Assembly: GCA_017460025.1 (NCBI GenBank)
Contig: JAFUBV010000001.1
Span: forward strand, 39,444-103,443
Source of the DNA: Methanobrevibacter sp.
GTDB lineage: Archaea > Methanobacteriota > Methanobacteria > Methanobacteriales > Methanobacteriaceae
DNA: 64,000 bases
Direction: 5' to 3'
The notes below the pieces were generated by a model. That model was not told the DNA's origin. It searched no databases and saw only the letters and a list, made by a program, of their open reading frames with translations. Positions 1 to 62,956 of this stretch are shown here, piece by piece; the stretch's first letter is position 1, and every line of letters begins with the position of its first letter. The translations under genes were made by a program, and so were the position numbers.

Positions 1-125
1 GATTATTATTTTAACACAACTAAAGGAGTTATACCCGTTACTTCAAAGGAATATAATCATTATAATATTTCAGATACATTGAACATTAGTGTGAATGATA
101 AAGGCAGGATTAGGGAGATTTTAAA

Positions 126-1130
126 TTGAAACCTGAAGTATTATCCGCATTAGCAGAATATGAAGAGATATGTGAAAACCCTTGGCCTCATAAACCATCT
201 GATGTGCAGAAATTAGTTGATGAATGGTTGGATGGTTATATTAGTCCTAAAGAATGGGTTATTGTGGAATGTTTGGAATCTGCGAAAGATTTTAAAGAAA
301 TATATGTTGGAGAAGAAAATAAAGGCCATATACTCAGAGTCCATATTTATGGTGGAGTGTATAAAGTTACTGATGAAATAATAGGTAAGGAGTTTATTTT
401 GGATATGGATAAAGGAGTGATGATTAAGGGTTCTAATACTGCACCCATTACAAAGTTTGTATGTTTAAGTAATGATTTTTTATGTGATTATTCAGATTAT
501 CCTAATATTTTATTACCTGTTCCAAAAGATGAAAAAAGAATACGTGAATGTAATCGTAATCCATTTGAAATTAAAAATATTCCTTGCTGTTACCGTACTC
601 CTGAAACATATTGCACTGCAAATGATGAACAATATGCTTATTGTCAGAGAGTGGGAGAAAATCCTAATGATATACAAAGGATAACAGATATTCCAATCAT
701 TAGCACACTACCATGTTCAGGTAAAGTTCTTTCATTAAATGCATCTCTTATTAAGCATGCTATGGAACATCCTAATACTAATAATGTATTTTTATGTCCA
801 CCACCATTAATAGATTCTGAATTTGTAACCATTAAACGATTATTAGATAAATCCCATATTTGTTATAAAGCAGATGATGAAAATAAAATCATTACATTAA
901 CTAATGATTCATCAATACATTTTAAAGCTTCCACTACTGGTGTTTTGAAGAAGACTCCTTATGAAAAACCGATAAGGGATCTCAAAGTAGAGACAGAAGA
1001 ATTAATGAAGTTTAATGATGATATGATTGAAGGGTTTAGTAATAATCCTGTGGCTCAGAGGTATTTTAAGAAGTGGAGATTAAATGAAAAAAAGAAGAGG
1101 AGTTTTAGAAAGAATGGCTGGTTTGTATAA
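126..1130 (+). CDS. Hypothetical protein (334 aa)
   Basis: Long ORF with GGGAG upstream of the TTG start; no recognisable motif. Confidence 0.7.
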   Translation: MKPEVLSALAEYEEICENPWPHKPSDVQKLVDEWLDGYISPKEWVIVECLESAKDFKEIYVGEENKGHILRVHIYGGVYKVTDEIIGKEFILDMDKGVMIKGSNTAPITKFVCLSNDFLCDYSDYPNILLPVPKDEKRIRECNRNPFEIKNIPCCYRTPETYCTANDEQYAYCQRVGENPNDIQRITDIPIISTLPCSGKVLSLNASLIKHAMEHPNTNNVFLCPPPLIDSEFVTIKRLLDKSHICYKADDENKIITLTNDSSIHFKASTTGVLKKTPYEKPIRDLKVETEELMKFNDDMIEGFSNNPVAQRYFKKWRLNEKKKRSFRKNGWFV

Positions 1131-44545: not shown

Positions 44546-44613
44546 GAATATTTATTCCACAATCTATTTTTTTTGAATTATTTTTACATACTATAAAATT
44601 TTTTTTTTTAGAA

Positions 44614-44670
44614 GTGGGTTTCAGGATTTAAACCTGACTATTATGTAAAAAATGATTCTTTTTAACCCAC
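44614..44670 (-). ncRNA. tRNA-like element (7-bp acceptor stem plus T-arm; 26-nt linker)
   Basis: Minus strand: GTGGGTT-N26-TCAGG TTTAAAT CCTGA-AACCCAC. Confidence 0.6.
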
Positions 44671-45169
44671 ATTTTTTCAAATTAATCCTTATTTTTTTTT
44701 AGTTTTTACATGGGAGGACCACCTCTCCATGAAAAACTAAAAAGAAAGAGAGTACATTTAAGGGTAAAAAAATGTGAAATGAATTATGTTACCCCTTTAT
44801 GTAAATGAGAGAAAAAAAAATAAATTAGGAAATTTTTTTTTGAATGTTTTGTCATTATTTTTGAACAATGGTGATTTAAAAAAAAATAAAAGAAGTTACG
44901 GCTGGCTGAATTTTAATTATATTTTTTTTTAAACATTATTTTTTTTTCTCTCAATGATTTTTACATTATCTAAAGATTCATTTCATTACCCTTTTTCTTT
45001 TGTCGACGTGTTTTTATTGTATTTTTTCCCCTGAAAATGGAAAAAAAATACTGGCCTAATATTTTTTTTTTAAACAAAGGTGAAATATAGGTGTTTTTTT
45101 TTTAGAGACGAACGCATATTTTTTCCCTATTTTTTTTGGAGCGAAAAAATGTTTTTTTTGAGAACTGTA

Positions 45170-45209
45170 GGTGGAACAGGGAATCGAACCCTGCAAAGAT
45201 TATTCCACC
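45170..45209 (-). ncRNA. 40-nt tRNA minihelix (acceptor stem plus canonical T-arm; no D or anticodon arm)
   Basis: Minus strand: GGTGGAA-TAATCTTTG-CAGGG TTCGATT CCCTG-TTCCACC. Confidence 0.72.
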
Positions 45210-45524
45210 ATCCATTTAAAATAAGAATAAAAAAAATATGAGAGGAATATGAAAAATAAAAATTGGAAATTTAGAAACGTGAGGATAAAAAAAATTTCCT
45301 AATTATTTTTAGATCATCCAATAGCTACTCTCCCATATTTTAATTTTTTTATTCTTATTTTCTTTTAACCAAAATAAAGGAAGTTATTTACTTTTCGTTG
45401 TTTTTTTTTAGAACCAGAGCAAAGTAGTTATATATTTTTTTTTCTTTGTTTTTGATAAGGGAGAAAAAGAATTTGAGTGTATGTTTAAAAAAAAAATAAG
45501 CTAGAAAAAACTCCCAAGAAAAAA

Positions 45525-47839: not shown

Positions 47840-49249
47840 TTATAAGTCTATAATCTCGAAAACAACTTCTCCAATATAATTTTTCTTCAAATAATTGAAT
47901 GCATGAGCTGTAGCATCGACAATATCATCATGTTGCCCGTTTGGAAATGCTTTGAATTCGTTGATGAATATTTGTCTTAATTTATCATCAACAATATCAA
48001 CATAGACATGTCCATCATAAATATAATTCTTTAATGGTGTTGCACGGTCAGCTTTACTATTGTTTGGTACAGCTACACCTCGTTCAACAAAGTAACCCAT
48101 TAAATCTTCTTCCCAGGTATCGTATAATATTTTTCCTGCTGCGGCCACACCAGTTTCAATGATACTGATGTTATCATGACCGTCACGTATTACTGTGTCT
48201 TTAACGATGTGTGCGGTGTCTTTTCCGAATTGGCCGTATAGGAAATCTGTTATTAGGATGCTTTTACCATCTTCTAATAAGTATACGGGTACTCCTGCGG
48301 TGGAGTCGTTTTTACCTGGGTCTGATGATGCTATATCGTATCCTCTTACTTGTTGTAGTGTTCCCATTTCTGGACGGTACCAATGAATATTTTTCAATTC
48401 GAAGAAGTCCGAGGTGTCATCTATAGGTTTTTGCTGATATATTGATTGGAACACTCTTTCTCCAACAGATTCTCTTTTCTTTTCTAATTTTTCTATTGGA
48501 TATCTTTCAGGCCATAATGGTGTTCCATCTTCTTTTATGGCTGAAAATTCTATGAAGTAATAATCTTCTTTTCGTTCTCTTTTGAATACTCCTTGCAGGT
48601 CTCCACTTGACCAGCGGGTATGGAGTAAAACAAGTTTGGTTTGTGGTTCGATACGTTGTTCGATGATTGTGTCAAACCAGTCTACTTTTTTCTGTAGTAA
48701 AGTTGGTGTTATATCATCAAAGCCTTTGTAAGGGTCGTCTATGATGATGTAGTCTGCATCTTGACCAGTGATAGATCCACTTGCACCAACTAATCTGATA
48801 CTCCCTTGATATAATGTACCTTCACGGTCACAGAACATTAAATGGTCTTTAGCATGTTTAACATCTGATAAATAAACATTGAAGTATTCACCATAACGGC
48901 CAACAGCTTCTTTTAATTGTATACCAAATTTTTCAGATAATGTGGCTGCATTGTTAACAATTAAAATGTTTAAATCAGGGTCTTGGAATATTAACCATAA
49001 TGGGAACGTTAAAGTCACCATTGAAGACTTTGAATGTCTTGGTGGCATTGCAACACATAAACGCTCAATATCACCTAAAAACACCATCGTCAATAATTCA
49101 GATAACTCATTAATATGATCAGCATCAACAATATCTTTATATCTTGATGCAACAAAAGTCATGTAGAATTCATAGAGATCATTTAATATTTCCTCCCATT
49201 CTTCAATGGTCAGATTTGGATTTAGATTTTCTAAATTTTCGCTTTGCAT
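47840..49249 (-). CDS. terL: Terminase large subunit
   Basis: Walker A PPRHSKS, Walker B YIIIDD, GYDIA, FPNGQHDDIVDA. Confidence 0.95.
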   Translation of the reverse strand: MQSENLENLNPNLTIEEWEEILNDLYEFYMTFVASRYKDIVDADHINELSELLTMVFLGDIERLCVAMPPRHSKSSMVTLTFPLWLIFQDPDLNILIVNNAATLSEKFGIQLKEAVGRYGEYFNVYLSDVKHAKDHLMFCDREGTLYQGSIRLVGASGSITGQDADYIIIDDPYKGFDDITPTLLQKKVDWFDTIIEQRIEPQTKLVLLHTRWSSGDLQGVFKRERKEDYYFIEFSAIKEDGTPLWPERYPIEKLEKKRESVGERVFQSIYQQKPIDDTSDFFELKNIHWYRPEMGTLQQVRGYDIASSDPGKNDSTAGVPVYLLEDGKSILITDFLYGQFGKDTAHIVKDTVIRDGHDNISIIETGVAAAGKILYDTWEEDLMGYFVERGVAVPNNSKADRATPLKNYIYDGHVYVDIVDDKLRQIFINEFKAFPNGQHDDIVDATAHAFNYLKKNYIGEVVFEIIDL

Positions 49250-49908: not shown

Positions 49909-50304
49909 TTAATGTACCATGTTGAAAAATACATTCACAATAATTGTAATAGCAGTCAATACTGCACCAATAATTAGTATTTGATTATTAAATCTTCTTT
50001 GTTCATCAGCTTCTTTTTCTTTAATACTATCCTTTAAATTCTGATAATCAGTTTCAATTGCTTTTAATCGTAATTCTAACTCCACATCTCCTTTCTGTGA
50101 ATCTATTTTGAAATCATTGAAACCTTGAATTAATATGTCAAGTTTATTATCCATGCTATTGATTTTATCATTCAATTCATCAATCCTTTTTTCTTTATAA
50201 TCTGCACGGGCTTCTAATTCGGCGGTTTTCCGACTGATGCCTTGTATTTGTTCTTCATGTATACAATTATGTTCAATTGACATCATCTTCACCCACTGCA
50301 TCAT
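49909..50304 (-). CDS. Coiled-coil protein with C-terminal TM helix (possibly lysis-related)
   Basis: Heptads, then ILIIGAVLTAITIIVNVFF. Confidence 0.6.
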   Translation of the reverse strand: MMQWVKMMSIEHNCIHEEQIQGISRKTAELEARADYKEKRIDELNDKINSMDNKLDILIQGFNDFKIDSQKGDVELELRLKAIETDYQNLKDSIKEKEADEQRRFNNQILIIGAVLTAITIIVNVFFNMVH

Positions 50305-50581
50305 TTGTATTTAATGAAGAATATTCTGCAGCAGGATCAATGGTTTGATTATTTTCAGCTTCATAGTTTATTACAGCTAATTTTTCTGCTCTTTCAACAC
50401 GTGTGTTTTCTGTTGATTGAACAACTACATAACCTGCGATTAAAACTATTATTGGTGAAAGATAAGCTAATTCTTTAGGTAATATTTCTACTAAAGCATC
50501 TTTTCCAATATATGTTATTAGTCCTGCTAGGAACACTATTGCGTTGGCTGCTTTGGATTTGATTTTATATGATTGTACCAT
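50273..50581 (-). CDS. Holin-like two-TM protein
   Basis: Two hydrophobic helices and a polar C-terminal tail. Confidence 0.55.
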   Translation of the reverse strand: MVQSYKIKSKAANAIVFLAGLITYIGKDALVEILPKELAYLSPIIVLIAGYVVVQSTENTRVERAEKLAVINYEAENNQTIDPAAEYSSLNTNDAVGEDDVN

Positions 50582-50628
50582 TTAATTAGTCTCCAAATTA
50601 TTTTTTTTATACTTTTAAAAAGAATTAT

Positions 50629-50873
50629 TGGTGATGTCCGGATTTGCACCGGAGAATAATATTTTCAAAAAAAAATATATTATAAAAAAAAATTTTTTAT
50701 TATTCCTTTTTTTATTACCCTTTATGAAAAGAATTACACACCATTTTTTTTGTTTTTAAATTATTTTTTTGAAAATTAACAAATGTCTGAAAAATATTAA
50801 AATTTAAACAAGAACCAAGAAAATAAAATAAAAATATATTTTTTTTATGTTTTTTAATTTTTTTTACATCACC
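50629..50873 (-). ncRNA. tRNA-like element with ~210-nt AT-rich insert
   Basis: Minus strand: GGTGATG-TA...-TCCGG TGCAAAT CCGGA-CATCACC-A. Confidence 0.55.
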
Positions 50874-50875
50874 AT

Positions 50876-51100
50876 TCAGATTAGGATGTGATAGGGATAT
50901 TTTGCTTTTCGTAATCCTGTGTATTCTAATGATGCTCTTGTCACTAATCCACATACCGTACAGTAGTCTAGGCAGTGTTCTTCATCATATGTTACAGTAT
51001 TGGTTTTGCATTCTGGACATTTGTTGAAGTTGATTTTTGCTTTTTTTATTTTCGCCCTTTTCCTGGGCTTGTAGGTTAATGGTTTTTTATCGTGACACAT
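50876..51100 (-). CDS. Stand-alone TFIIB/TFB-type zinc-ribbon protein
   Basis: CPEC....VTYD......YCTVCGLV. Confidence 0.75.
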   Translation of the reverse strand: MCHDKKPLTYKPRKRAKIKKAKINFNKCPECKTNTVTYDEEHCLDYCTVCGLVTRASLEYTGLRKAKYPYHILI

Positions 51101-51665: not shown

Positions 51666-52370
51666 TTATTTTTTTGTTTTTTTTTTGAGTAATTTACGTG
51701 CTGCTTTTAAATCAGTGTAATATATATGTCCTGATGTTGAATGATAATGTATTCCGCCAAAACTAATTTTAGTATTTATCAAGTCTTTATTTAATTCTTC
51801 AGTCATTTTTAATCCAATATATGTTATGAAATACATATTGGAGTAGAATGCTCCGTAGATATCATTGCTTCTGAAGATACAATGTATTGTTAGTTCATTG
51901 TTTCTGATTATTACTTGTATGAATTGTAGGCAGGGTATGTCTTCTCTATCAGCATCTAGTGGTGGGTCATATGTTACTGCTACTGCACGGTTGCTTCCAG
52001 GATTATGTTGTAATCTTTTTTTCATTACGTTGAATTGGTTTATATTGAAATGTGCTAATATCCTATTTGGATAGGAGTAGACGAATCCTTGGTCGGATTC
52101 ATCTTCAAATGATTTTACATATTCATATAATGCATCACTTTTAATAGGGCTTCCTGGCAGATCATATTCTCCATTTTTGATATCTGTTAGCATTCGGGTT
52201 GTTGTGTAGTGTTGGTAATTTATCCTGTATTTTAGGTTTAATGGGTCCTCTATTAGATAGTAGTTACCTAATTTTTCTATTAGGTGATGGTTGCTGTCTT
52301 TATATGTTTCTTTCCCGTTTTTAATTATTTCTTTTATGAATTGTATGTAGCATTGGTTAATCGTCATCAT
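51666..52370 (-). CDS. thyA: Thymidylate synthase (ThyA family, archaeal type)
   Basis: YSYPNR, SNRAVA, PCLQ, FRSND.YGA..SN, SGHIY. Confidence 0.88.
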   Translation of the reverse strand: MMTINQCYIQFIKEIIKNGKETYKDSNHHLIEKLGNYYLIEDPLNLKYRINYQHYTTTRMLTDIKNGEYDLPGSPIKSDALYEYVKSFEDESDQGFVYSYPNRILAHFNINQFNVMKKRLQHNPGSNRAVAVTYDPPLDADREDIPCLQFIQVIIRNNELTIHCIFRSNDIYGAFYSNMYFITYIGLKMTEELNKDLINTKISFGGIHYHSTSGHIYYTDLKAARKLLKKKTKK

Positions 52371-58832: not shown

Positions 58833-59867
58833 CTATTTCATTATTTTATCACCAATTAATTCATCAAGAGTAGATTGAGTATTCTTTAAAGAATAAGAAT
58901 TATAATCTCGTATAAATTTAGCAAAAGTAAATGGGGTAACATCATTTTTACCATAAATACTATGATATTTTTTATGACAATCATTACAAAGAGTTACACA
59001 ATTACTATCTTCAATACGATAATCTAAATGGTCTTTATATCCATAGATATGATGGACTTCTAACCCATGATTAATCTTTTCAGTATTATGATACCCACAA
59101 CATTGGCAAGTAAAATTATCTCTTTCACGAACTCTCATTTTCATAGCCCTATATTCCGGATCATTTCTTGTTGGAGCAGTAACCTCTTTTTTCCATTCTT
59201 TAAGATTATCATATAATTCAAAACCAATTTTTCCTTTTTGTTTATATAAAGGTTCATCACTCCATTGTAGAATATGTAATCCATCATATGAAGACTCTCC
59301 ACCCACCATATCCTGTAATTCTATAATTCCTTCTTCTGAAAAGAAAAAATATATATAATAATTGCATTTTTGAATCCCATAATTTAATAAAAATAATTGG
59401 AAATAAGGATTCATATTTTTAATAAACACAATATCATATTTTTTAACTTCATCAAATATCTTAAAAATATCAAATTTACTATTAAAATACTCTTTTGCAT
59501 CTATAAATAATGGATTAACATCAATATCTTCAAGAAAATGCTGAGTGGTATACCATAATTCTTTACCTCTATGTTCATCACCTACAAAAGTATAAACTAC
59601 ATCCTTTTCCATTATTTCATTGTTTGATTCAGCATACATTAATCCATTAGTGTGTTTAAACCATTTTTCGTTATCAGGATTCCAATTATTCAATTTTCTA
59701 TTAATTGCACCATTTATTCCTCCAAAGTATATCCCATAACTTTCTTTTTTAGATGAAGATTGAAAGAAATTATATAACCACTTTTCAAAAGGTCCTGGAA
59801 AATATACATCTATGAAATTTAATTTTCGTAATTTTTTATGTTTTTCTGCACTAACCATTTTTTTCAC
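58833..59867 (-). CDS. Protein with C-terminal HNH nuclease domain
   Basis: RDNFTCQCCG...LEVHH...NCVTLC..CH..YH. Confidence 0.82.
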   Translation of the reverse strand: MKKMVSAEKHKKLRKLNFIDVYFPGPFEKWLYNFFQSSSKKESYGIYFGGINGAINRKLNNWNPDNEKWFKHTNGLMYAESNNEIMEKDVVYTFVGDEHRGKELWYTTQHFLEDIDVNPLFIDAKEYFNSKFDIFKIFDEVKKYDIVFIKNMNPYFQLFLLNYGIQKCNYYIYFFFSEEGIIELQDMVGGESSYDGLHILQWSDEPLYKQKGKIGFELYDNLKEWKKEVTAPTRNDPEYRAMKMRVRERDNFTCQCCGYHNTEKINHGLEVHHIYGYKDHLDYRIEDSNCVTLCNDCHKKYHSIYGKNDVTPFTFAKFIRDYNSYSLKNTQSTLDELIGDKIMK

Positions 59868-60164: not shown

Positions 60165-60343
60165 ACATTCACTCTCCTAGGTCTTCTTAATTTAATATCC
60201 TCATTTTTTCTAGCTTCCTGGAATAATCGGTAATATTTTGTTGATCCGATTCCAAGGAGTTTTTTTATTTTGTTTACACTGTAGCCTTTGTTGTAGTATT
60301 CAACAAAACGTGGATACAATTCATTAAAATAATCAGGAATCAT
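60161..60343 (-). CDS. Small HTH protein
   Basis: YNKGYSVNKIKKLLGIGSTKYYR. Confidence 0.6.
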   Translation of the reverse strand: MIPDYFNELYPRFVEYYNKGYSVNKIKKLLGIGSTKYYRLFQEARKNEDIKLRRPRRVNV

Positions 60344-61233
60344 CTTTTCACTCCAAATCTTTTAATAAAATCAATAAAATCAACTGGATTAATATTTTTC
60401 AAACCATAAACACTGTGATATTTATCATGACAGAATTTACATAATGTAACACCATTATTTTCATTGACGGCTAGTTCAGGGTTTTCTTTGTATCCAAATA
60501 GGTGGTGTACTTCCAAGTGTTTGTCTAATCCGCAGCAGACACATTGTTGATTGTCTCTTGATAACACTTGTTTTTTCCAGTTATCATATCCAGGTATTTC
60601 ATCTTCACGAGTTATGGTGATTGGTTCATCAGATTCTTCAAGTTTATTAACAAAATTAACATCTAATGATATTTTAGCTGATGGATGATAATATCCTATT
60701 AATTGTATATGATCTCCATTTTTCCATTTATCAAATTCTGCACAGGAATTTCCAAAGGTAGCAGTAATTGTTTTTTCAGTGTCATTGTCATAAATTGTGA
60801 CTCCTTGATAATATCCTTTGTAATTGACATGAGGTTTTAATACATTCTTAATTTTACAATCCAAACACACATATCCTTTTTCTCTTAAATTAAAATCCTT
60901 TAATTTAGTATAAAATAATTCACCATTAGAAAATGATTTTATCACATTAATCAAATCATCGTCAGATAATCTTAGGCTTAATCCATAATTTCGTCCAACA
61001 TTTAATGCTTTGATTATATCATTTCCTGTAGTAATTGGATAATTAATTATGTAACGTTTCAATCCTTCATCCCAGAATATATGCTTAACATCTTCTTCAT
61101 AAAATGCAGAATCAACTACAGCTCTTAACTCTCGTTGTTCACCAGAACGTTTTGGAATTATGGATAAACTATCCACATCCTTTTTAAATGAATACGCATT
61201 TAAATTAATTTCCATTTTTATCAATGCCTCCAT
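60340..61233 (-). CDS. Protein with C-terminal HNH nuclease domain
   Basis: RDNQQCVCCG...LEVHH...NGVTLC..CH..YH. Confidence 0.82.
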   Translation of the reverse strand: MEALIKMEINLNAYSFKKDVDSLSIIPKRSGEQRELRAVVDSAFYEEDVKHIFWDEGLKRYIINYPITTGNDIIKALNVGRNYGLSLRLSDDDLINVIKSFSNGELFYTKLKDFNLREKGYVCLDCKIKNVLKPHVNYKGYYQGVTIYDNDTEKTITATFGNSCAEFDKWKNGDHIQLIGYYHPSAKISLDVNFVNKLEESDEPITITREDEIPGYDNWKKQVLSRDNQQCVCCGLDKHLEVHHLFGYKENPELAVNENNGVTLCKFCHDKYHSVYGLKNINPVDFIDFIKRFGVKR

Positions 61234-61240
61234 CCTTTTT

Positions 61241-62956
61241 TTATTTTCCTATTGGAACTTTCACTTTTCTACGTTTACGAGTAACACTTAAACCATCAAT
61301 AGCTTCCAAGAAATACTCATTAAACAAATACCTATAATTAGATAACAAACCTTCAAAATCAGCATCCAAAACATAAGTAACACAATAATCATCCATATCC
61401 CGGATACCTCTACCATAAGCCTGCATCAAAGGCATTATAGTCTGATACATATACCAGGACAAATCATATCTTTTACGAATGTTAATCTGTTTTCCTGCAA
61501 GACTTGGGAATGGCATTTTATAAATTATCTGAAAACGACATTTATCTCCTTTAAAATCCACTCCATCTTTAACTCCAGCACCTATAAGTATTGTTGGTTT
61601 GTGTGATTTTTCGAATTGTTCTATGAATTTGTTACGGTCTTTTCCTCCAGCTATCATTATTTTATGTGATGTGGATAATTCTTGTTTTAACCACCAGGCT
61701 TGTTGGTTACTAGATACATGGATTACTCCTTTTTCATTTTTGTGTTTGTGGAGTATTTCTTCGATTTTGTATAATCCATTAACGTTTTTCCAGTTTCCTC
61801 TTTTCATGTTCCCCACATAATCTCTGATGATTGGTCTGTTCTTTTTGGGGAATGGTGATTTTACATATATGTAATATGTTTCATCGGGATTGATTCCTAT
61901 CCAGTAGCAGAATTTGTCTTTGTTTCCTAATGTTCCTGTCATGAATAGTCTTGTTTCTCCGAATTGTAAGAGATTTTCACTATGGTTTTTAATCATTAAT
62001 GGTTTGAATTCTGCTTTTAATCCAGTATGATAATCATCTTGTTGGATCTCTTTTTTAGTTGGTATTTCGATGATTAATTCACCATCTTTTAATTGTTTCC
62101 TTAATTCTTCAAATTGGTTAATTTTTCTTTCATAATGATTTAATGTATCATCATTGAAAGTATCTGATATACTTATGTTTTCACGACCACCATAAGTTTC
62201 ATTAATATATCTGATGAATTGGATTTTTGTTTCATTTATTAATTTATCACATACTCCAATCCAATATATTGGACCTTCCATTTTCTTCAAAGTCAAACCA
62301 TGTTCCAAACCATCAAAAATATCAAAATCATAATCTTTCTTAATAGTTTTACGATTCAAAGTAGTAGTTACTAATTGCATTACTTTTTTCTCAAAATTAT
62401 GGGTTTCATCCAATATTAATAAATCTCTTTCAGGCAATACTTGAGCGAATCTTCCAGCGAAATATAAATAATCATAATTAGTTATAATTGTTGGAGAAGC
62501 TAATGCTTCCTGCACTGCCTTATTGTATCTGCAATCTTTACATTTTTTAGATTTTTTAGGTTTTTCAGGTTTAGCATATTTATTAGGATTATTTTTATGT
62601 TGTTGTAATGCTACACGATAACTTTCCAACATTTTAGCATATTGTTGATTAATAGTGCATGGTTCACAGGAACCTTCAAGAAGACATTCATAATTACTTC
62701 TTCCTTTGATTTCTTTTAACATATAATCGAAATCCTGTAAGTATTGTTCCTGAAGTTGATTTGTCATTGTGCAGATATATGATGTGACGAAGTAGTTTGC
62801 TATTGTTGTTGCAATAGCTGATTTACCAGTTCCAGTTCCTGCTTCTAATATAATGTTTTTATATCCTTCATCGATTGCAGTTAATATTTCATCAATGATT
62901 TTTCTTTGTTCTGGTCTTGGATTGTATCCTTTTAAACTCCATTTTTCCATATCCAT
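61241..62956 (-). CDS. XPD/DinG (Rad3)-family SF2 helicase
   Basis: PRPEQ, EAGTGTGKS, KGRSNY.C, LDETH, MTGT, GVDF, QAYGRGIR...D. Confidence 0.9.
   Translation of the reverse strand: MDMEKWSLKGYNPRPEQRKIIDEILTAIDEGYKNIILEAGTGTGKSAIATTIANYFVTSYICTMTNQLQEQYLQDFDYMLKEIKGRSNYECLLEGSCEPCTINQQYAKMLESYRVALQQHKNNPNKYAKPEKPKKSKKCKDCRYNKAVQEALASPTIITNYDYLYFAGRFAQVLPERDLLILDETHNFEKKVMQLVTTTLNRKTIKKDYDFDIFDGLEHGLTLKKMEGPIYWIGVCDKLINETKIQFIRYINETYGGRENISISDTFNDDTLNHYERKINQFEELRKQLKDGELIIEIPTKKEIQQDDYHTGLKAEFKPLMIKNHSENLLQFGETRLFMTGTLGNKDKFCYWIGINPDETYYIYVKSPFPKKNRPIIRDYVGNMKRGNWKNVNGLYKIEEILHKHKNEKGVIHVSSNQQAWWLKQELSTSHKIMIAGGKDRNKFIEQFEKSHKPTILIGAGVKDGVDFKGDKCRFQIIYKMPFPSLAGKQINIRKRYDLSWYMYQTIMPLMQAYGRGIRDMDDYCVTYVLDADFEGLLSNYRYLFNEYFLEAIDGLSVTRKRRKVKVPIGK

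Follow-up and report, generated by a model that had tools for sequence, protein, structure and literature searches.

The spacer between a zinc-ribbon gene and the packaging genes of a Methanobrevibacter virus raises the question of whether two distant strands, which could close a tRNA-like end around an AT-rich insert, form a genuine RNA element and what such an element would do. From comparison of sequences, the closure is a real sense-strand RNA structure under selection and part of a conserved RNA family, because related viruses keep the fold at the same spot with matching mutations. The carriers of this family appear to be tailed viruses and proviruses of rumen and gut Methanobrevibacter.

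The window, meaning the whole 64,000-nt stretch that was analysed, covers positions 39444-103443 of contig C273 (130,604 bp). Because the first and last 53,505 bp of this contig are identical, the replicon is a 77,099-bp virus genome, circular or concatemeric, which was assembled 1.7 times over. The virus encodes a terminase, a helicase, HNH endonucleases, and a thymidylate-synthase-like protein; the HNH endonuclease genes (58833-59867 and 60340-61233) adjoin a DEAD/Helicase_C_2 helicase gene (61241-62956), and the thymidylate-synthase-like gene lies at 51666-52370 of the window. No DNA match was obtained among public phage records, and its relatives were found in Methanobrevibacter MAGs from goat gut and rumen-type metagenomes. 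The 20 tRNAs found in the MAG are archaeal in type. All genes around the element are on the minus strand, and the features of the locus are the following.

50876..51100, minus strand: zinc-ribbon ORF of 74 aa ending in UGA (50878-50876), the upstream neighbour
50867..50873, minus strand: 5′ acceptor-like strand GGUGAUG, with G1 at 50873, UA after it and U at position −1
50654..50866, minus strand: AT-rich insert of 213 nt, with A-runs of up to 8 and U-runs of 5, 5, 9, and 9
50833..50846, minus strand: 5′ arm AAAAAAAAUAUAUU of an A-U helix inside the insert, a 14-bp perfect inverted repeat
50736..50743, minus strand: motif UGGUGUGU within the insert, (U)GGUGU-like
50668..50681, minus strand: 3′ arm AAUAUAUUUUUUUU of the A-U helix, whose U-run is also a potential archaeal terminator
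50637..50653, minus strand: T-arm-like hairpin of 5 bp with a 7-nt loop, UCCGG (50653-50649), UGCAAAU (50648-50642), CCGGA (50641-50637)
50629..50636, minus strand: 3′ acceptor-like strand CAUCACC and a discriminator-like A (50629), abutting the hairpin with zero gap
50273..50581, minus strand: 102-aa membrane-like ORF, the first gene of the block leading into the small and large terminase subunits
47840..49249, minus strand: large terminase subunit (phrog_38, E = 2e-74)

The 7-bp acceptor-like closure is formed by GGUGAUG (50873-50867) and CAUCACC (50636-50630). The earlier note on this DNA had placed the 5′ strand GGTGATG-TA 2-3 nt behind the zinc-ribbon stop codon, and the distance is in fact 2 nt (AU), with UA following the strand. 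The distant pairing with CATCACC-A after a T-arm, which had also been proposed, is borne out as a 7-bp RNA stem within a 9-bp inverted repeat at the DNA level (TGGTGATGT/ACATCACCA), and the unconstrained MFE fold of the 245 nt is likewise closed by the acceptor-like stem together with the hairpin. The 9-mer itself occurs four times in the window against 0.73 expected, and the fold z-score of the element is only −2.1. The arrangement is that of a tRNA top half, in which a 7-bp acceptor stem abuts a 5-bp T-stem with a 7-nt T-loop (U54, C56, R57, A58, and the pair G53-C61). The loop in the window carries U54, G55, C56, A57, and A58 with G53-C61 present, and position 55 is G rather than U in the window clade and in two other lineages. 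CCA is not encoded after A73 (50629). The element takes up 245 nt of the 294-nt spacer between the two ORFs, and the 47 nt from its 3′ end to the AUG of the 102-aa gene hold a GGAGAC ribosome-binding site. Behind the 102-aa ORF, the gene order is a 131-aa ORF, a candidate small terminase subunit, and the large terminase subunit; the small subunit is a probable assignment based on position and a helix-turn-helix-like N-terminus, and shows no family match.

Several known identities were tried for the element and rejected. ARAGORN reported no tRNAs in the window, nor, whether or not introns were allowed under its default settings, in eight elements, and the only two calls it made under relaxed settings (-i200 -ps90) were spurious; a D-arm or anticodon arm is lacking in every member. 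Rfam gave no tRNA match at E ≤ 10 and no tmRNA match on the window. The third pair of the tmRNA acceptor stem, G3-U70, is an alanine identity pair. At this place the window has U-A, and across the family U-A, C-G, or G-C is found, never G-U. In addition to G3-U70, a tag ORF and pseudoknots are missing, and SmpB (PF01668) was absent from the MAG (86% complete) in a search that found it in ten bacterial control genomes. The earlier note was therefore right to claim a tmRNA-like topology without tmRNA function. It had also described the insert as A/T-tract-rich with no convincing tag ORF, which agrees with comparison to the relatives L009 and L020: no ORF in the insert is conserved on either strand, and neither a 43-aa plus-strand ORF (50628-50759) nor the small sense ORFs persist, so that a coding explanation was dropped. 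The splicing of the insert, which had been suggested as something to look for, is not indicated, since no bulge-helix-bulge motif spans the insert and only the continuous A-U helix was matched; an intron-bearing tRNA was rejected on the same ground. GUGAUGU resembles a C box, but a D box is not conserved, and a C/D-box sRNA was thus discarded. A look-alike tRNA-Cys in G242 (UCCGG-UUCAACU-CCGGA-CAUCAUC) is a true tRNA in a ten-tRNA cluster and not a relative of the element. That cluster (L015 = G242:C10:19379-22402), with ten tRNA genes of AT-rich acceptor stems within about 1.3 kb, may be a viral tRNA array.

The closest relatives show which parts of the spacer are kept. Two IMG/VR contigs, L009 and L010, were found by an exact 23-mer of the hairpin and 3′ strand, and an 87-kb virus, L020, through its large terminase subunit; the protein identity of this subunit is 85-88% for L009/L010 and L020. 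All of them retain AUGGUGAUGUA and the hairpin plus CAUCACCAAU, and the rest of the spacer has diverged in sequence and length. Between the window and L009, the perfectly conserved blocks are one of 19 nt (AAUGGUGAUGUAAAAAAAA) and one of 27 nt comprising the hairpin and the strand after it. The strand GGUGAUG is identical in all of these relatives despite diverged flanks, even in L020, where a 6-nt indel lies just upstream of it. The insert is poorly conserved in sequence and measures 213 nt in the window, 223 nt in L009, and 146 nt in L020. A compensatory change from C-G to A-U and one loop change are seen in the L020 hairpin (UCAGG-UGCAAAC-CCUGA). The acceptor strands are identical across the three window-clade lineages, that is, conserved without covariation. 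L009 has a counterpart of the A-U helix at the same position (element nt 28..216, compared with 28..206 in the window).

Evidence of covariation comes from the family at large. A search of 103 genomes of the genus, of IMG/VR, of GTDB representatives, and of metagenomes supplied homologues of the 102-aa protein, and the 300 nt upstream of them gave 50 non-redundant regions. The architecture was present in sense in 14 of these 50 regions and in none in antisense, with 0.04 in shuffles. The conservation in relatives that the earlier note had named as a check was thus found at both ends of the element in L009/L010 and L020, and the frequency of the architecture at the junction speaks against chance. 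In every case, 23-58 nt separate the 3′ end from the AUG of the 102-aa homologue. The more distant members, from Methanobrevibacter viruses and proviruses, are 83-177 nt long and occupy the same site. About half of the relatives have another spacer cassette without the tRNA-like element, for which the conserved motifs GUUUAAC, UUAAUUUUAACCAAA, and CAUCUCCUACA were recorded (L011, L022, L023, L069, L070, L080, and L085). The zinc-ribbon gene stays beside the element in nearly all relatives, 2-196 nt upstream. The protein it encodes is similar to the TFIIB/TFB zinc ribbon (PF08271, E = 8e-5, short of the Pfam cut-off); this likeness and its place immediately before the junction element make it a possible viral transcription factor for late genes. 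A role as an Rpp21-like RNase P protein was rejected, the TFIIB zinc ribbon being its only notable sub-threshold match. The acceptor strands of members include the following pairs.

GCUGAUG / CAUCAGC
GUCGUGG / CCACGAC
GUUGUGG / CCACAAC
GCUAUGG / CCAUAGC
GCUAUGA / UCAUAGC
GCGGGUU / AACCCGC

The T-stems are varied too (GCUGG/CCAGC, UGGGG/CCCCA, GGCAG/CUGCC, and ACCGG/CCGGU among them), and the T-loops are mostly the canonical UUCAAAU or UUCGAAU (UUCRAAU). In 13 distinct end sets, six of the seven acceptor pairs and four of the five T-stem pairs vary on both sides, and G1-C72, G53-C61, and C56 are invariant, none of which the pattern search had demanded. When 20 distinct relatives are aligned by a covariance model, 96.7% of cells pair, compared to 75.4% after shuffling; both sides vary in 11 of 12 pairs, and the covariation score is 0.506 against 0.159 for shuffled alignments (reached in 0 of 500 shuffles) and at most 0.136 for slid controls. 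As this alignment is fitted to the model, its figures lean towards structure, whereas the pattern counts and the sense/antisense contrast are independent of it. The covariance model R1, built from seven typical members with their inner motifs, also found members that the pattern search had missed (L057 and L094), and non-seed members scored 35-69 bits. Neither the window nor L009 or L020 was recovered with R1 at E ≤ 1. Membership of the window clade in the family is suggested by architecture, position, the shared UGCAAAU loop, and the GGUGU motif: the window element has the same genomic site, strand, and end architecture as the typical junction family, and its loop variant recurs in two other lineages, the typical members L054 and L061. 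The same MAG also holds a second virus or provirus (L037 = G000:C230:10381-13440), with a 102-aa homologue at 57% identity and a typical junction element of 128 nt (L037:1859-1986, minus; GUCGUGG...UGGGG-UUCAAAU-CCCCA-CCACGAC-A). In L030 (G217:C4), a candidate second long-insert closure, GAGUCUG...239 nt...GAGGG-UUUAAUU-CCCUC-CAGACUC-A, is located about 150-400 nt upstream of its junction element.

The inner region of typical members is organized as well. When folded without constraints, nearly all members form the acceptor stem, the T-arm, and an inner arm, and in the typical members these make a three-way junction whose long inner arm is P2. Common inner motifs are UUCUYU, AAUUUCRAUUAAA, and (U)GGUGU; the last of these, located in the 3′ strand of P2 in typical members, occurs in similar form in most members examined (UGGAGC in L054). 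The motifs are weak or absent in the window clade, although UGGUGUGU is kept in the window (50743-50736). In about eleven lineages, moreover, a covarying copy of the 3′ strand lies near the 5′ strand, and the two can pair with a GNRA-like loop between them; L063:1022-1143 is another typical member with such an alternative pairing, and the window clade lacks it. Examples of the two inner features are given below.

L037, P2 helix: CAUGACAU/AUGUCAUG
L061, P2 helix: AUAACACCAAA/UUUGGUGUUAU
L061 (1319-1449), alternative 5′ hairpin: GUUAUGG-GCGAA-CCAUAAC
L060 (1361-1472), alternative 5′ hairpin: GCUAUGA-GCGAA-UCGUAGC
L037, alternative 5′ hairpin: GUCGUG-GAAAA-CAUGAC

Since the alternative 5′ hairpin excludes the acceptor stem, the RNA may have two states. 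The earlier note had proposed a tRNA scaffold that matures and stabilises a cargo RNA, and of this proposal the tRNA-like closure stands, as it is conserved. The cargo part fares badly: the insert of the window clade, being poorly conserved, AT-rich, and interrupted by U-runs, is unlike a cargo, and that of typical members is a structured inner arm and not a payload.

The same end architecture is also found elsewhere in the virus. The 77-kb genome was scanned for a 7-bp stem enclosing, after 3-300 nt, a 5-bp stem with a T-loop-like loop that abuts the 3′ strand. Four matches were obtained, all on the coding strand and none on the other, compared with 0.47 on both strands together in dinucleotide shuffles. 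Three of the four are intergenic, namely the 245-nt element and two minimal minihelices (45209-45169 and 44670-44613), and the fourth is a weak match inside an ORF.

45169..45209, minus strand: minihelix GGUGGAA-N9-CAGGG-UUCGAUU-CCCUG-UUCCACC-U, in the 980-nt head-gene gap
44613..44670, minus strand: minihelix GUGGGUU-N26-UCAGG-UUUAAAU-CCUGA-AACCCAC-U, 67 nt before the 378-aa head gene

The G314 homologue of the first minihelix reads GGUGGGA/UCCCACC, a compensatory change; the second is kept in G314, and an analogous element lies at the same place in G315. The ORF-free gap of 980 nt before the 378-aa head gene (44546-45524, minus) is conserved in the 87-kb relative (G314:37634-38400), where both minihelices and a GGAGAGGUGGUCCUCCC hairpin are retained. 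The short minihelices share with the element the acceptor/T-arm stack, the strand of the late genes, the intergenic position, and the compensatory changes. They differ in the distance from the 5′ strand to the T-arm, which is 9-26 nt compared to 213 nt in the element and 51-223 nt across the family, and in lacking the fixed site between the zinc-ribbon gene and the packaging block that marks the junction family.

What the element does could be addressed by analogy with t-elements. In plant mitochondria, t-elements direct cleavage by RNase P and RNase Z at the ends of mRNAs (PMC1920247), and for Haloferax PMC4326828, citing Hoelzle 2008 and 2012, reports that an RNA flanked by t-elements is cut in vivo by RNase P and tRNase Z. 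As these sources present them, the t-elements of plant mitochondria and Haloferax volcanii resemble the present element in having an acceptor-like stem on a conserved T-arm without a decoding function, and they sit at message ends, cut by RNase P on the 5′ side and by RNase Z after the discriminator. We consider it an even chance that the element is a divergent, expanded tRNA mimic of the t-element kind, at which cutting by RNase P and tRNase Z separates the zinc-ribbon message from the packaging/late message. The host tRNA-maturation enzymes would read the acceptor/T-arm stack as they do in t-elements. RNase P would cut before G1, 2 nt past the zinc-ribbon stop codon, and thereby create the 3′ end of the zinc-ribbon message, and tRNase Z would cut after A73, leaving the packaging/late message with a 47-nt leader that includes its ribosome-binding site. 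The tRNA-like RNA released in this way may survive, perhaps after the addition of CCA. The location between genes, with a stop codon 2 nt ahead of the element and the next AUG 47 nt behind it, fits the position of a t-element, and the two short minihelices in another non-coding gap of the same virus and strand are counted in favour of processing. Fifteen of 17 members have U immediately before G1, and no promoter-like motif is seen at a fixed distance upstream of G1 among the members, both of which fit a processed 5′ end. Against a bare cutting signal, typical members conserve inner motifs and the alternative 5′ hairpin, neither of which is needed for cutting. The element also departs from the known t-elements in being encoded by an archaeal virus, in that its cleavage is a prediction, and in that a long inner arm (83-255 nt total across the family) replaces the degenerate cloverleaf; typical members add conserved inner motifs and the covarying alternative hairpin, and the window clade adds U-runs in the insert.

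The inner conservation could instead point to a stand-alone non-coding RNA that mimics tRNA and acts in trans, with a functional inner arm and with RNase P and tRNase Z merely maturing it; its target, as a decoy or regulator, could for example be a host enzyme, or a defence factor, with specificity for the acceptor/T-arm half of tRNA. In support of it, typical members are compact, at 83-135 nt, conserve UUCUYU, AAUUUCRAUUAAA, GGUGU, and helix P2, and avoid internal U-runs (nine of twelve have no internal run of at least 5 U, and A-runs are common), half of them then having a U5-U8 run after the element; many are located behind U-runs that would end the upstream transcript. The constant 23-58 nt before the same gene, however, suggests a role in cis, a partner protein is not evident, no promoter-like motif stands at a fixed upstream distance, and the inner motifs are weak or absent in the very clade of the window. 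We therefore regard a trans-acting RNA as unlikely.

For the window clade in particular, the closure may no longer lie within one transcript. U-runs are archaeal termination signals. The inserts of the clade have three to six runs of at least 5 U, up to U9, so that few transcripts may contain both acceptor strands. TATA-like tracts accompany U5-U9 runs inside the inserts of all three clade members, unlike in typical members, and since the ribosome-binding site follows only about 18 nt after the element in L009 and L020, their late promoter must be within or upstream of the element. The insert would then consist of one or more terminators of the zinc-ribbon gene and the late promoter; the late message would carry the hairpin plus CAUCACCA as its structured 5′ leader, GGUGAUG would belong to the 3′ tail of the early one, and the match of the strands would be a relic of an ancestral element or would pair in trans. 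A relic 5′ strand would be expected to decay, yet the 19- and 27-nt blocks are perfectly conserved between the window and L009 in an otherwise poorly conserved spacer, and both have, at one and the same position, the A-U helix by which the two ends are brought near each other. A divided closure is for these reasons considered rather improbable. Of the three readings kept for this element, closure in cis on transcripts that read through the insert is preferred to a structured 5′ leader with a relic and to pairing in trans.

The alternative 5′ hairpin allows a further, speculative reading, which we hold to be quite doubtful, namely that the family is a two-state RNA switch at the early/late boundary, with a cuttable tRNA-like form and a form in which the 5′ hairpin abolishes it. 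On this reading, the halves of the window clade, set apart by terminators, might even pair from one transcript to another and serve RNase P as a natural external guide sequence, and the decay of the early message would then be coupled to the maturation of the late one.

A function at the DNA level, as a packaging site, a replication origin with inverted repeats, an operator pair, or a tRNA-derived attP core, is very unlikely. The element adjoins packaging genes, and an AT-rich spacer bounded by a 9-bp inverted repeat would suit such a site. Nevertheless, the architecture occurs strictly in sense orientation (14 versus 0), and the stems covary freely around tRNA-specific T-loop residues and a G53-C61 pair that never change, which is the signature of an RNA fold and not of a protein-binding DNA site. 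The attP variant was rejected: none of the 20 MAG tRNAs has the 3′ end, and no second copy exists in the MAG within three mismatches; similarly, no second copy or tRNA sharing the 3′ half of its own element was found in G217, which is 99% complete. The element is, furthermore, internal to the virus rather than at provirus ends, and the circular or concatemeric 77-kb form contains it. That the element is a tRNA pseudogene in decay, a tRNA with an intron, or a match by chance is scarcely credible, for although L024 scores 26.9 bits against Rfam tRNA (under the 29-bit threshold) and related viruses have viral tRNA genes, the negative ARAGORN results and the missing arms and bulge-helix-bulge stand against a tRNA, and the conservation and covariation seen across many lineages exclude chance and speak against neutral decay.

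The preferred reading, a t-element-like processing signal, places the element among several cases of tRNA resemblance. With tmRNA (SsrA) it shares only the topology, in which the 5′ and 3′ ends form an acceptor stem beside a T-arm and enclose a large insert; the host is archaeal. The bacterial YrlA Y RNAs and the 3′ tRNA-like structures of viruses are, like the element, instances of tRNA mimicry by non-decoding RNA. In YrlA, however, a loop closes the tRNA-like module and the ends pair into a Ro-binding stem, which is not so here, and the tRNA-like structures of plant viruses are 3′-terminal, pseudoknot-built, and aminoacylated, an architecture that is not seen in the element. Rfam has no family matching the junction elements, and no tRNA-like processing signals in archaeal viruses were found in Rfam or the literature searched, the coverage of which is incomplete. 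What appears to be new, as judged from sequence, is a family with long arms and a fixed place at the junction, and the window element would be an expanded and atypical member of it.

To our knowledge, almost nothing is known about how archaeal viruses shape their long late transcripts. The top half of tRNA is reused in Methanobrevibacter viruses in two ways, as a minimal minihelix and as the closure of a long, evolving inner arm. The latter has its fixed place at a regulatory junction, with a TFB-like zinc-ribbon gene on one side and the packaging/late operon on the other. It offers a testable handle on the action of RNase P and tRNase Z on archaeal mRNAs, and it possibly bears on the timing of late genes in viruses of the main gut and rumen methanogens.
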